From: Terriglobia bacterium
GTDB taxonomy: Bacteria; Acidobacteriota; Terriglobia; Versatilivoradales; Versatilivoraceae
DNA length: 64,000 nt
Assembly: GCA_965215235.1 (NCBI GenBank)
Contig: OZ244053.1
Location: forward strand, 2,471,192 to 2,535,191
Direction: 5' to 3'
The notes under the pieces are model-generated. The model saw only the letters and a list, made by a program, of their open reading frames with translations, was not told the DNA's origin and did no database searches. Made by a program: the position numbers and the translations under genes. The stretch's first letter is position 1. Each line of letters opens with the position of its first letter. Shown piece by piece: positions 25,555 through 38,655 of this stretch.

Positions 25555-27600
25555 ATGGCGCAACGACCATCGAAAAAGATACGCGCCGGCACGGGCGCGC
25601 AGCCGGGCGACAACGGCGCCACGACTGGCTACGAGTCTGAACTTTGGCGGATGGCCGACGCGCTGCGGGGCAGCATGGACGCCGCCGAGTACAAGCACGT
25701 CGTCCTCGGTCTCATCTTCCTCAAGTACATCTCCGACGCCTTCGAAGAGGCCTACGCTCAACTGAAGGCTGAGGTCGATCAGGGGGCCGACCCCGAGGAC
25801 CCGGACGAGTACCGCGCCCGGAGCATCTTCTGGGTTCCCCCGGAGGCCCGCTGGCCGCACCTGAAGATACAGGCGCGCCAGTCCACCATCGGCCAGTTGG
25901 TGGACGACGCCATGGCCGCCATCGAGCGTGACAACCCGGTTCTCAAGGACGTGCTGCCCAAGGACTACGCCCGGCCCGCCCTGGACAAGGCCCGCCTGGG
26001 CCAGCTCATCGACCTCATCGGCAACATCCGGGTCGGGGATGAGGATGCCCGCTCCAAGGACGTGCTGGGCCGAGTCTACGAGTACTTCCTCTCCCGGTTC
26101 GCCAGCGCCGAGGGCAAGAAAGGCGGCGAGTTCTACACGCCCCGCAGTGTGGTCAGGCTGCTGGTGGAGATGCTGGAGCCCTACAGCGGGCGGGTCTACG
26201 ATCCCTGTTGCGGCTCATCGGGCATGTTCGTCCAGTCGGTGGAGTTCATCCGCGCCCATGCCAGCGGCAATGGCAACGGGGGCAGGGCTCGGGCCGACAT
26301 CTCCATCTACGGCCAGGAATCCAACTACACCACTTGGCGGCTGGCCAAGATGAACCTGGCCATCCGGGGCATCGAAGGCCAGATCACCCACGGCGACAGT
26401 TTCCTCAACGACCGCCACCCCGACCTCAAGGCCGACTACATCCTGGCCAATCCACCCTGCAACGTCTCCGACTGGGGCGGCGAGCGCCTGCAAGAGGACA
26501 AGCGCTGGCGGTACGGCGCGCCGCCGAGGGGCAACGCCAACTTCGCCTGGGTGCAACATATGGCGCACCACCTCTCGCCCAGCGGCGCGGCGGGCTTCGT
26601 GCTGGCCAACGGCTCCATGTCGTCCAACCAGTCGGGCGAGGGCCAGATACGCCGGAACCTCATCGAGGCCGACCTGGTGGACTGCATGGTGGCGCTGCCC
26701 GGCCAGCTTTTCTATTCCACCCAGACCCCGGCCTGCTTGTGGTTTATTGCCTGCGACAGGCGCAGGCAACCCTCACCCGGCGCTCCGCGCCGCCCTCTCC
26801 CAAAGGGCGAGGGTCATTACCGGGGCGGATTTGATTTTTCCGGGCAACTGAAACTGGCGCGGGAAATGAGAAGAAAGGCGACTCCAGCGGAAGCTCTAGC
26901 TTGGGAGTTGTTCAGGGGTCGGCGATTCCTTGGACTCAAGTTCCGTCGCCAACATCAGATCGGCAGTTACGTCGTGGACTTTTATTGCCACGAGAAGCGG
27001 TTGATTGTGGAACTTGATGGCCCCGTCCACGACGGTCCGAAAAGGCGACCCATAGATGCAAAACGTGACGCCTACCTCAAGTCCATGGGACTGAAGATCC
27101 TGCGACTCAAGAACGAGCGCCTGCTCGACGATACCAACGAAGCCCTCAACGAAATCGCAAACGTCCTAACCCCCTCTCCCAGTGGGAGAGGGGCAGGGGT
27201 GAGGGCGAACAGATTTCGTGACCGAAGACACGAAATCCTGTTCATCGACGCCCGCAAGCTGGGCCGCAGGGTCGACCACACCCACCGCGAACTGACCGAC
27301 GACGACATCGCCCGCATCGCCGACGCCTACCACGCCTGGCGCGGTGAGGAGGATGCCGGCGACTACGCCGACACACCCGGCTTCTGCAAGAGCGCAACGC
27401 TGGAGGATGTCCGCAGGCACGGCCACGTCCTCACCCCCGGACGCTACGTCGGGGCTGAGCCGCAAGAGAACGACGGCGAACCCTTCGAGGAGAAGATGCA
27501 ACGGCTCACCGCCCAGTGGCGGGAGCAGCAGGCCGAGGCTGTCCGGCTGGACGCCGCTATCGAGGCCAACCTGGAACGGCTGGGATTTGGAGGCGACTGA
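25555..27600 (+). CDS. hsdM: Type I restriction-modification methyltransferase subunit HsdM carrying an in-frame about 150 aa DUF559 (Vsr-like endonuclease) insertion
   Basis: N-terminal '[22 protein letters not shown]'. Motif I/IV region '[14 protein letters not shown]'. C-terminus '[36 protein letters not shown]...[10 protein letters not shown]'. The block between '...[13 protein letters not shown]' and '[15 protein letters not shown]' is not part of canonical HsdM. Confidence 0.85.
26767..27210 (+). mobile_element. In-frame DUF559-domain insertion within hsdM, flanked by inverted 'CCCTCACCC'/'GGGTGAGGG' repeats and GC hairpins
   Basis: '[59 protein letters not shown]...[21 protein letters not shown]' is the DUF559 signature. 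Left flank 'AACCCTCACCCGG...GCCCTCTCCCAAAGGGCGAGGG'; right flank 'CCCCTCTCCCAGTGGGAGAGGGGCAGGGGTGAGGGCG'. Length is a multiple of 3. Confidence 0.6.
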
Positions 27601-27676
27601 AGAACAAGACGACAGCTTGAAACTTCAACTGGCTAGACTTATAATCTAGCCAAATTCATCCTGGGTGGAGGCGAGT

Positions 27677-35526: not shown

Positions 35527-38500
35527 ATGACCACCCTCACCGAAGCCGACGTCGAGCAAGCGGCCCTGGACTGGCTGGAGGGCCTCGGCTGGCGGCTGGC
35601 CCGCGGGCCGGATATCGCCCCCGATACTCTTGCCGCGGAGCGCACCGACTACGGGCAAGTGGTGTTGGAGCGGCGGCTGCGGGATGCCCTGGCCGAGTTG
35701 AATCCCGATCTCCCCGCCGGGGCGCTGGACGACGCCTTTCGCAGGTTGACCCGCCCGGAGGGGGCGACGCTGGAAGCCCGCAACCGCGCCTTTCACCGGA
35801 TGCTGGTGGAGGGTGTGACGGTCGAATACCGCACCGATGCCGGCGCAATCCGCGGGGCGCAGGCGCGGGTCATCGACTTCGAAGATTCTAGCAACAACGA
35901 CTGGCTGGCGGTCAACCAGTTCACCGTCAGCGAGAGCAGGAACACCCGCAGGCCCGACGTCGTGCTGTTTGTCAACGGTCTGCCCCTGGGCGTCATCGAG
36001 CTCAAGAACCCGGCGGACGAAGACGCCACCCTCTGGACCGCTTGGCAACAACTACAGACCTACAAGGTCGAGTTGCCTTCGCTGTTCTCCATGAACGAGC
36101 TGCTCATCGTCTCCGACGGGACGCAGGCCCGCATCGGCACGCTCACCGCCGGGCGGGAGTGGTTCAAGCCCTGGCGCACCATATCGGGCGAAGCTCTGGC
36201 CGACCCGCACATGCCCGAACTCCAGGTGATGCTGGAAGGCGTCTGCGCTCACGAGCGGTTCCTGGCTATCGCCCGCGACTTCACCGTGTTCGAGGACGGC
36301 GGCGGCGGGGCGCTGGTCAAGAAGATGACCGGCTATCACCAGTTCCACGCGGTGCGGGTGGCGGTGGCGGAGACTTTGCGGGCATCCGAGTTACAGCGCA
36401 TCGCCGATAAGTCCGGCAGATACGAGTCGGGCCGCAAGCCGGGCGGCGACCCGGGCGACCACCGCATCGGCGTGGTCTGGCACACTCAGGGATCGGGCAA
36501 GAGCCTGACCATGGCCTTCTACGCCGGAGCCATCATCCGCGAGCCGGCCATGGAGAACCCCACCATCGTCGTGCTGACCGACCGCAACGACCTGGACGAT
36601 CAGCTTTTCGGTACCTTCTCCCGCTGCCAGGACCTCTTGCGCCAGCCACCCGTGCAGGCCGAGAGCCGGGCCGACCTGCGCCGCAAGCTCGCCGTCGCAT
36701 CGGGCGGCGTGGTGTTCACCACCATCCAGAAGTTCTTCCCCGAGGAGACAGGAGATATCTACCCTGCACTCTCCAACCGTCGCAACGTCGTGGTCATTGC
36801 CGACGAGGCCCATCGCAGCCAGTACGACTTCATCGACGGGTTCGCGCGCCACATGCGCGACGCGCTGCCGCATGCCTCCTTCGTTGGTTTCACCGGCACG
36901 CCGATCGAATTGCGGGACGCCAACACCCGGGCCGTGTTCGGCGACTACATCAGCATCTACGACGTCCGGCGTTCGGTCGAGGACGGGGCCACGGTGCCCA
37001 TCCACTACGAGAGCCGTCTTGCCAGGCTGGCCCTGGACGAGAGCGAACGACCGACCATCGACACGGAGTTCGAGGAGGCCACCGAGGGCGAGGAGGTGGA
37101 GCGCAAGGAGAAGCTCAAGATCAGATGGGCGCAACTGGAGGCCGTCGTCGGCGCGGAGAAGCGGCTGAAGCGGGTGGCCGAGGATATCGCGGCCCATTTC
37201 GAGAAAAGGCTCGAAGTCCTTGACGGCAAGGCGATGGTGGCGTGCATGAGTCGGCGCATCTGCGTCGAGTTGTACCGGGAGCTCGTCCGATTGCGTCCCG
37301 ACTGGCGCGACGAGGACGACGACAGGGGAAGCATCAAGGTGGTGATGACCGGCGCCGCCTCCGACCCGCCTGAGTGGCAGGCGCACATCCGCAACAAACC
37401 GCGGCGTGAGGCTCTGGCGAAACGTTTCCGAGACCCCGAAGACCCGCTCCGGGTCGTGCTGGTGCGCGACATGTGGCTGACCGGCTTCGATGCGCCCAGC
37501 CTGCACACCATGTACGTGGACAAGCCGATGCGCGGTCACGGGCTGATGCAGGCCATCGCCCGGGTCAACCGGGTGTTTCGGGACAAGCCGGGCGGTCTGG
37601 TGGTGGATTACCTCGGCTTGGCTCCTGAATTGAAACGCGCGCTGGCGACTTACACCGAAAGCGGCGGCGCGGGCCGAACAGCCCTCGATCAGTCGGAGGC
37701 GGTGGCGGTGATGATCGAGAAGTACGAAATCTGCCGCGGCCTGTTCCACGGCTTCGACTGGTCGAAGTGGATCGCCGGCGCGCCGGTGGAGCGGCTGGGC
37801 CTGCTGCCGGCCGCGCAAGAGCACGTCCTGGCGCAGGAGAACGGCAAGGATCGTTGCCTGCACGCAGTGCGCGAACTGTCTCAAGCCTTCGCGCTGGCCG
37901 TCCCGCACGAGGACGCGCTGCGCATCCGCGACGACGTGGCCTTCTTTCAGGCAGTGAGCGGCAGCCTCGCCAAACGCGCTCCCGGTGAGACGCGGCCCGA
38001 AGAAGAGTTGGACCATGCGCTGCGCCAGATTGTCTCGCGCGCGGTGGCCTCCGAAGGCGTCATCGACATTTTCGCCGCCGCCGGGCTGAAGAAGCCCGAC
38101 ATCTCGATCCTCTCCGATGACTTCCTGGCCGAGGTGCGCGGCATTCCCCAGCCCAACCTGGCCGTCGAGCTGCTGCGGAAGCTGCTGAGGGGCGAGCTGG
38201 CTGCGCGCCGAAAGAAGAACGTCGTCCAGGCGAGATCTTTCGCCGAGATGCTGGAGCAAGCCCTCCGCCGCTATCAGAACCGCGCCGTCGAAGCTGCGCA
38301 GGTGATCGAAGAGTTGATCCAACTGGCCCGGGACCTCCGCGAGGCCAACGCCCGCGGCGAAGAGCTCGGGCTGTCGGAAGACGAGCTGGCTTTCTACGAC
38401 GCGCTGGAGACCAACGACAGCGCGGTCCGGGTGCTCGGCGATGAAACGCTCCGCGCCATCGCCCGCCAACTGGTTGAAACCGTCCGCAACAACGTCACCG

Positions 38501-38655
38501 TCGACTGGACGCTGCGCGAGAACGTGCGCGCCCACCTCCGCGTACTGGTCAAGCGCATACTGCGCAAGCACGGCTACCCGCCGGACAAGCAGGAGAAAGC
38601 AACGCTGACCGTTCTGGAGCAAGCCGAGGCCCTGTCCGCCGGCTGGGCTGTCTGA
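35527..38655 (+). CDS. hsdR: Type I restriction enzyme R subunit HsdR
   Basis: '[22 protein letters not shown]' N-terminus. SF2 helicase motifs ([26 protein letters not shown]). 1042 aa. Confidence 0.9.

Follow-up and report, generated by a model that had tools for sequence, protein, structure and literature searches.

A Type I restriction-modification operon enlarged by successive insertions carries a YopA-family HEPN protein and a candidate defence protein of an uncharacterised family

Which of the genes lodged inside a Type I restriction-modification (R-M) operon are likely to serve immunity, and how did they come to be there? The question is raised by a 13 kb locus on contig OZ244053.1 of a Terriglobia bacterium, within a 64,000-nucleotide stretch (positions 2,471,192 to 2,535,191, hereafter the window) in which hsdM, hsdS and hsdR are separated from one another by cargo. 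An initial annotation had singled out two large open reading frames (ORFs) among this cargo, one encoding 335 amino acids between hsdM and hsdS (ORF335) and one encoding 429 amino acids between hsdS and hsdR (ORF429), and had placed neither in a known embedded family. The explanation that we favour is that a real Type I R-M operon (hsdM-hsdS-hsdR) gained its cargo step by step, that ORF429 would act as a latent RNase backing up restriction, and that ORF335 is a candidate defence protein. Taken as a whole, with the roles of both proteins included, we give this explanation a probability of roughly 60%.

The hsd genes are separate, lie at one locus and are each full length, as a Type I R-M gene set requires. 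HsdM has motif I as DPCCGS, HsdR has the PD...ELK and DEAH motifs, and the E-values of the matches to the hsd and cargo genes (Table 1) are far past chance level. Window HsdM is 74–81% identical to the HsdM proteins of five related loci (L001, L005, L025, L142 and L147; loci used for comparison carry L numbers), and HsdR is 82% identical to that of L005 across residues 1–1042. The whole 13 kb is on one strand with short or overlapping gene junctions, forming a single co-directional array, and ORF listing and profile searches bore out the layout initially described, with cargo at both junctions and every named gene on the plus strand. The flanks are ordinary (PspA upstream, an enolase-superfamily gene downstream), and a tRNA scan and an Rfam scan of the region found no element in or near the locus. 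In motif IV, HsdM has NPPC (residues 299–302; window 26449–26460; codon TGC), while the five relatives at 74–81% identity all have NPPF. This substitution may have weakened the methyltransferase; an assembly error at this base is the other possibility.

What is ORF429? Its AlphaFold model is confident (pLDDT 92.6, pTM 0.91), with a beta-rich N-terminal half and a C-terminal four-helix HEPN fold in which the Rx4-6H motif lies on helix 3, the placement expected of a HEPN domain. Across 51 homologues R360, H365 and E300 are invariant and N361 is nearly so, giving the motif R-N-x3-H. In precomputed annotation the Pfam families YopA_M (PF26308) and YopA_C (PF27216) are assigned to an identical protein (P0121) and to nearly all homologues, and a tblastn comparison with yopA of the prophage SPbeta gave an E-value of 6e-17, with 27.6% identity over 72% of ORF429. 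The gene is full length and keeps all family-invariant residues. Judged from sequence and predicted fold, ORF429 is a HEPN protein of the YopA family. The earlier view that it matched no known embedded family fails on this assignment and on the record, HEPN RNases embedded in R-M loci having been catalogued in 2013; the clades found in such operons include that of ApeA (PMC3710099).

ORF429 starts 3 nucleotides (nt) past hsdS, and a relic ATGA junction links its end to an hsdR start, which shows that ORF429 once overlapped such a start. Of six homologues at 39–55% identity, five occupy the gap between hsdS and hsdR (L142, L143, L144, L145 and L147); L142–L144 are mutually syntenic, and the position is kept over at least four independent loci. 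The EcoprrI Type Ic locus has the same arrangement (prrA-hsdM, prrB-hsdS, prrC, prrD-hsdR), with prrC, likewise a HEPN RNase gene, between hsdS and hsdR, and it follows the layered logic that we propose for ORF429, in which DNA is restricted first and RNA cleavage serves as back-up (PMC3710099). On the other hand, the N-terminal and middle domains of ORF429 are beta-rich and of YopA type, whereas PrrC has an ABC-ATPase domain. No ATPase domain was found in ORF429 with Pfam, NCBIfam or PADLOC, no sequence relationship between the two proteins was detected, and the ORF429 family is also widespread outside R-M loci. A second useful comparison is ApeA, a single-gene defence system (Gao 2020) and HEPN tRNA anticodon nuclease activated by 5'-phosphorylated deoxydinucleotides, which cleaves tRNA anticodon loops (10.64898/2026.01.26.701840). 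Like ORF429, it combines a sensor-type region at the N-terminus and a HEPN domain at the C-terminus in one polypeptide. However, E. coli ApeA is about 580 residues long, mostly alpha-helical and has a split HEPN domain, whereas ORF429 has 429 residues and a beta-rich N-terminal half. Pfam ApeA_NTD1 matches ORF429 weakly (E 0.0019; 18.2 bits, below the 25.5-bit cut-off). Membership of the ApeA or PrrC family was considered and rejected, given the lack of ApeA model matches and of an ABC-ATPase, and both proteins serve here as analogies only. SPbeta YopA is a true homologue with the same Pfam domains. Its gene stands alone in the prophage with its own terminator, outside any R-M operon, whereas ORF429 is embedded in one; the neighbours of yopA in this prophage accessory region include yonT, a RES-domain protein and a superinfection-exclusion protein. 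No published function for YopA was found in the literature searched.

These comparisons suggest how ORF429 might work. The Type I enzyme would be the first barrier, if HsdM with its NPPC motif and an insert described below is still active, and ORF429 would be a second-line, latent abortive-infection RNase co-expressed with the restriction enzyme. During infection its own beta-rich N-terminal domains would activate it, and it would then cleave RNA of the host or the phage; tRNA, the substrate of ApeA and PrrC, is the likeliest target. Autonomous activation is favoured because the family is mostly solo, like ApeA.

The same position could be explained differently: the HsdM/S/R complex might hold ORF429, and possibly ORF335, inactive until the phage disables the enzyme with an anti-restriction factor, for example a Stp-like peptide or one of the DNA mimics Ocr and ArdA; release of the effector would then turn restriction failure into cell suicide. 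ORF429 occupies the prrC slot, as do five of its six homologues with at least 39% identity; this fits the proposal, and so do the 3-nt spacing from hsdS and the relic ATGA overlap with an hsdR start, and ORF335 or its homologues lie in the hsdM-hsdS gap in three loci. PrrC with EcoprrI (PMC3710099) is one precedent and Ronin, in which HsdMS cages an effector independently of methylation (10.1101/2023.04.06.535777), is another. Ronin consists of an HsdMS decoy and RonA, and its effector gene is tightly linked to hsdM/hsdS, as the cargo genes are in the window. Its independence of methyltransferase catalysis was tested with a mutant of the motif IV NPPF, F-to-G at this position being the standard catalytic-dead mutant in that study (10.1101/2023.04.06.535777), and the window HsdM has a natural NPPC there. 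Yet Ronin has no hsdR and a 61-residue membrane-peptide effector, whereas the window has an intact hsdR and the linked proteins, of 335 and 429 residues, look soluble. Both families mostly occur without hsd genes, and SPbeta yopA stands alone; the large N-terminal domains of ORF429 could themselves be the sensor, PrrC's ABC-ATPase is absent, and ApeA, the nearest studied HEPN analogue, is autonomous. We therefore regard control by the Hsd complex as unlikely and keep to the autonomous RNase as our working explanation for ORF429.

ORF335 is a different case. The window protein matched nothing in Pfam, NCBIfam, PADLOC or PHROGs, and Pfam was also empty for 50 family members at E-values up to 5. 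Its confident predicted model has no neighbour in PDB or BFVD, PDB sequence profiles matched neither the full length nor the N-terminal 110 residues, and no relative was found in the phage and plasmid collections searched. No described family having been matched, the statement that ORF335 matches no known family holds. The family is nevertheless large: clustering at 90% identity gives 256 clusters, and at 50% identity there are 712 representatives, of which 329 have E-values up to 1e-30. It comes mostly from uncultivated lineages (Latescibacterota, Binatia, Gemmatimonadota, Acidobacteriota, Chloroflexota, Planctomycetota and Desulfobacterota). Nearly all members are about 330 residues long, and no fusions were seen; domain fusions in longer homologues were considered and rejected, the extra residues being over-extended starts or read-through. 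Conservation falls into two clusters, the first made up of F27, C29, P30, D35, C41, H44, N47, Q60, R61, D63, D65 and E73, and the second a helical signature, K173-A-A-H-L-T-L-F...G-Y-R-Y-A-L-S. The window copy is full length and keeps every family-invariant residue. The first cluster falls on a predicted strand-strand-helix unit with a His at the end of strand 1. In the model this geometry appears to be that of His-Me-finger nucleases, with no profile or fold match to them, and we weakly favour a His-Me-finger-like nuclease as the identity of ORF335. Such a protein could perhaps be a modification-dependent nuclease that complements the methylation-based system.

The case for a role in defence comes mainly from where ORF335 and its homologues are found. 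In the window its junctions are tight, with 8 nt separating it from the stop codon of an upstream hsdM relic and 11 nt from hsdS. Homologues are embedded as hsdM-X-hsdS in L001/L148 and L005, and lie just upstream of hsdM in L007 and L025. In L047 (3271–18411) a homologue belongs to a BREX operon that encodes BrxC, an RmrA-like helix-turn-helix peptidase, PDC-S70, an unannotated 338-residue protein, the ORF335 homologue, PglX and PglZ, so that four embedded genes lie between brxC and pglX, and cluster analysis linked L040, L046, L048 and L061 to this arrangement. In L003 a homologue is directly upstream of an MmeI-like enzyme; in L004, L014 and L149 homologues are likewise directly upstream of ISP-like proteins combining a methyltransferase with a target-recognition domain, and in L150 a homologue sits beside AlbA_2/HATPase_c_4 and MNT-HepT genes. 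In total, ORF335 or a homologue adjoins an N6-adenine methyltransferase of defence type in at least 13 of the 61 loci, which span five system contexts. The neighbour counts are lower bounds because ORF calling in GC-rich DNA picked shadow ORFs, and the methyltransferase hidden Markov model was too insensitive. Clustering of neighbours by all-vs-all BLAST and phmmer revealed no conserved partner gene in the 61 loci, only lineage-specific operons being shared, and ORF335 was therefore treated as a single-gene module. ORF335 is a defence candidate on two grounds: it is found embedded again and again in Type I R-M and BREX operons, and it lies beside methyltransferases of the Type IIG-like and ISP-like kinds.

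A further possible nuclease lies within hsdM itself. The gene contains an in-frame DUF559 insert of 148 residues with the Vsr-like motif VELDGxxHD, which is lacking from the HsdM of the five relatives (74–81% identical). The edges of the insert are imperfect inverted repeats with hairpins (CCCTCTCCC-N3-GGGnGAGGG) that translate to Pro/Gly-rich linkers; the hairpin motifs are at 26793–26813 and 27172–27192, where chance would be expected to produce none. Fusion to Type I R-M fragments is frequent among its closest database relatives and accounts for about a fifth of the best 120 clusters: an HsdM C-terminus is present in 16 and HsdR domains in 3, and JGI names a further 6 as HsdR. The same module with its linkers is found at no fewer than five different positions in HsdM and HsdR elsewhere (P0366, P0371, P0391, P0396 and P0424), and in L151 (4533–6750) the insert divides hsdM into two ORFs. 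From this distribution the module looks like a mobile in-frame nuclease element that prefers Type I genes. No description of such an element in Type I genes was found in the literature searched. A bolder pair of claims can be built on these observations. ORF335 would be a new single-protein immune family, with a fold absent from PDB and BFVD, that works beside N6-adenine-methyltransferase systems (Type I R-M, BREX, Type IIG-like and ISP-like) as a missing or complementary nuclease or as an attack sensor; separately, the DUF559 module in hsdM would represent an unrecognised class of in-frame mobile nuclease elements preferring Type I R-M genes. Joined in this way, the two claims are tentative, and we think it doubtful that both are correct.

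Several observations weigh against the favoured explanation. A close homologue of ORF429 (in L146) is surrounded by housekeeping genes (for sigma-70, DnaG and metabolism), hsd genes were detected by tblastn beside only 3 of 80 distant metagenomic relatives (23–34% identity), and ORF429 matched neither the PADLOC ApeA models, at E-values up to 0.1, nor Pfam HEPN_Apea. Most of the 61 ORF335 loci have no adjacent R-M genes, and other loci of this family have housekeeping neighbours. In the window, several cargo genes are pseudogenes, and the R-M enzyme itself may be impaired by NPPC in place of NPPF and by the 148-residue insert in HsdM. The initial annotation had named occurrence of the same cargo in unrelated contexts without R-M genes as grounds for giving up its proposal. 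Members of both families were indeed found away from R-M genes. Obligate dependence on R-M is thereby made less likely, but a defence role is not, since it is normal for single-gene systems to occur alone (10.1101/2024.01.29.577857). Moreover, the distant relatives of ORF429 adjoin defence-island genes (SNF2/ResIII helicases, SMODS, SLATT, PglZ, MmeI, RhuM, integrases and PIN), and for both large cargo proteins the proposed defence setting is supported by homologues in defence contexts elsewhere.

Table 1. Genes, remnants and relics of the locus, in window coordinates.
Feature	Position	Strand	Description and basis
hsdM	25555-27600	+	681 aa; Type I methyltransferase subunit; Pfam N6_Mtase (E 7.7e-99) and HsdM_N; PADLOC MTase_I (E 1.9e-213)
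DUF559 insert in hsdM	26767-27210	+	148 aa, in-frame; Vsr-like nuclease; Pfam DUF559 (E 4e-33), aa 432-538
Phd/YefM antitoxin	27665-27931	+	Pfam
PIN toxin	27931-28344	+	Pfam
MNT	28341-28694	+	Pfam NTP_transf_2
HepT	28684-28965 (ORF)	+	Pfam HepT-like; last helix continues in another frame to 29024
ORF81	29021-29266	+	81 aa; small conserved protein; no library match
hsdM 3'-end relic	29268-29380	+	Direct-repeat search; 70% identical to 27492-27591
ORF335	29389-30396	+	335 aa; member of a large uncharacterised family; defence candidate
hsdS	30408-31709	+	433 aa; specificity subunit; Pfam Methylase_S; PADLOC Specificity_I (E 1.8e-128) across aa 1-430
ORF429	31713-33002	+	429 aa; YopA family; beta-rich N-terminal and middle domains, C-terminal HEPN RNase domain (predicted)
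hsdR 5'-start relic	32999-33040	+	MTTITKADAKQAA; overlaps the ORF429 stop as ATGA; about 40 nt similar
RAYT-like ORF (HUH/Y1)	33061-33612	+	183 aa; NCBIfam REP_Tyr_transpos, 64.5 bits
hsdR 5'-start relic	33609-33632	+	Overlaps the RAYT-like ORF at its stop codon; eight codons identical to those that begin hsdR
PDC-M24A (DUF6978-type) pseudogene	33609-34047	+	PADLOC; comparison with the intact L003 gene
PDC-M24B (DUF1828/DUF1829 protein)	34044-34808	+	Intact; Pfam; PADLOC PDC-M24B (E 1.7e-105)
PDC-S01 (DUF4143 ATPase) remnant	34805-35502	+	Two pieces; Pfam DUF4143 in two ORFs; PADLOC PDC-S01
hsdR	35527-38655	+	1042 aa; restriction/translocase subunit; Pfam HSDR_N, SWI2_SNF2, T1R_D3-like and T1RH-like_C (E 6e-135)

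How was the operon enlarged? The locus was initially described as having grown by successive insertions, and it carries the scars of such a history: remnants of the 3' end of hsdM and of the 5' start of hsdR lie within the cargo. The hsdM relic, of about 110 nt, is still in frame and retains its own stop codon shortly before ORF335, and in L001/L148 the ORF335 homologue starts 11 nt past the stop of an intact hsdM. The relic thus belongs with ORF335, which means that the toxin-antitoxin block and ORF81 sit between the working hsdM end and the relic one. No donor of the relic could be picked out, since it is no closer to any one of the sampled hsdM genes (48–63% identity). On the other side of hsdS, the relic at 33609 is a hybrid in which eight hsdR codons are joined to the PDC-M24A frame at a LTEAD / LTQAEAD microhomology. 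L144 has two hsdR relics (11308 and 11777), one of them 3' of the YopA-like gene, where the CAACCC-ATGA junction seen in the window recurs, and the other longer than 90 nt and taking in upstream sequence. L143 has one (12934), 3' of a gene for a 389-residue cargo protein, and L147 (7957) has only a possible relic of 24 nt with four mismatches to the hsdR start, 3' of a TIR gene. Here and in related loci the relics border cargo blocks, often through an ATGA overlap with the preceding stop codon.

Site-specific integration at a fixed attachment site in hsdR was considered as the source of these scars and rejected. The relics vary in length from 24 to more than 90 nt, one with upstream sequence, which argues against a fixed site; homology-anchored illegitimate recombination fits better. 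Each incoming segment apparently derived from another hsd locus, with the conserved 3' end of hsdM or 5' end of hsdR providing a homologous anchor, the other junction forming illegitimately and a short relic being left behind. We infer this anchored, partly illegitimate mechanism from the arrangement of the relics, which are themselves directly observed.

Much of the cargo has decayed. A vapBC pair, an MNT/HepT pair, a small ORF and ORF335 had been reported in the hsdM-hsdS gap, and all were confirmed, with the correction that HepT is frameshifted. The MNT and HepT domains are both matched and their genes are adjacent. HepT retains its Rx4H motif (FRNVLIH), but the frameshift precedes the last helix, so that the fold is incomplete in frame and the C-terminal tail 'VVENNPPTLSREIDALLEEE*' is in another frame; the restored frame would end at 29024 in an ATGA overlap with the start of ORF81. 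For the hsdS-hsdR gap, the genes listed initially are present, but the DUF4143 pieces lack the ATPase part and a pseudogene had been overlooked. An apparent 432-nt gap 5' of the DUF1828/DUF1829 gene is a PDC-M24A pseudogene, of which the C-terminal half (33823–34047) matches the PADLOC model at E 2e-27 over positions 73–145 of 146, and the N-terminal half, recognisable by comparison with the intact L003 gene, carries one in-frame stop and one frameshift. With PDC-M24A pseudogenised and PDC-M24B intact, the PDC-M24 pair is half dead and does not qualify as an intact pair. The PDC-S01 remnant is the C-terminal part only (model positions 230–422 of 422), spread over two frames (230–317 and 313–419), and is thus not a full-length ATPase-DUF4143 protein.

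Such decay could mean that the operon is simply a tolerated landing site, in which a dying R-M system has collected selfish elements (toxin-antitoxin pairs, the RAYT-like gene and the DUF559 element) and the two large ORFs are hitch-hikers with no immune role. The HepT frameshift, the PDC-M24A pseudogene and the truncated, frameshifted PDC-S01 all fit this picture, as do the NPPC motif and DUF559 insert of HsdM, the housekeeping genes among the neighbours of ORF335 homologues, and a G+C content of 48–56% over the cargo region (ORF335, hsdS and ORF429) versus 63–67% in hsdM and hsdR. However, hsdS and hsdR are intact, ORF335 and ORF429 have kept their full length and invariant residues, members of the two families turn up repeatedly in unrelated types of defence operon, and the position of ORF429 is conserved over at least four independent loci. 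We consider the landing-site reading very unlikely, and hold to the stepwise growth of a real R-M operon with defence cargo.

The smaller genes would have subsidiary parts in this scheme, the toxin-antitoxin pairs stabilising the island or adding abortive-infection functions. Just 5' of the Phd/PIN pair, a near-consensus sigma-70-type promoter (11 of 12 positions) at 27617–27645 overlaps a perfect palindrome, CTAGACTTATAATCTAG, and the site is probably an autoregulated toxin-antitoxin promoter within the operon. ORF81 had no match in Pfam, PADLOC or NCBIfam, and has homologues at 55–56% identity in the hsdM-hsdS gap of L007 (13541–13705), L025 (17583–17777) and L143 (7564–7809). The RAYT-like ORF has HUH and Tyr motifs (HLH and NYYERV), but its score is below the NCBIfam cut-off of 80 bits and Pfam Y1_Tnp gave no match. 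Homologues, 49–51% identical between loci, lie directly 3' of YopA-like genes in L147 (9683–10330) and L128 (10974–11504), where the YopA-like HEPN genes are just 29–39% identical to ORF429. This adjacency could reflect a functional pair or a common insertion preference. An obligate pairing was not adopted, the two genes being adjacent in only three loci (the window, L147 and L128). The 389-residue protein mentioned above is encoded beside the YopA-like gene in the hsdS-hsdR gap of both L143 (11756–12925) and L145 (6794–7963). It had no Pfam match, and no PADLOC match for the L143 copy, on which that search was run, and it may be a further unannotated embedded candidate.

How much of this locus is new? 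The concept of guilt by embedding is established, with the PDC sets of Payne et al. 2024 (10.1101/2024.01.29.577857), and the HEC/PDC candidates of that study, TgvAB and BrxU (Type IV) show the same nesting of defence genes in Type I R-M or BREX systems. The DUF1828/DUF1829 and DUF4143 cargo is already catalogued there as the embedded candidates PDC-M24B and PDC-S01. Because the nesting has been described and two cargo genes of the window are PDC members, the locus type is known. ORF335 and ORF429, on the other hand, match no PADLOC v2 model. The RefSeq-based embedding screen may have missed the ORF335 family because its homologues are almost all from uncultivated lineages, with no phage or plasmid match. 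Three things are new here. ORF335 is the foremost of them; the others are the recombination scars, which are explicit, and the presence of a YopA-family HEPN protein where PrrC would lie.

Its scars make this locus a clear example of a defence island growing inside an R-M operon, with hsd genes as the probable recombination anchors. An unstudied HEPN family, YopA, in the classic position of PrrC would widen the set of RNase back-ups to restriction. If ORF335 is truly an immune effector tied to methyltransferase systems, it would bring a new protein fold to bacterial immunity.

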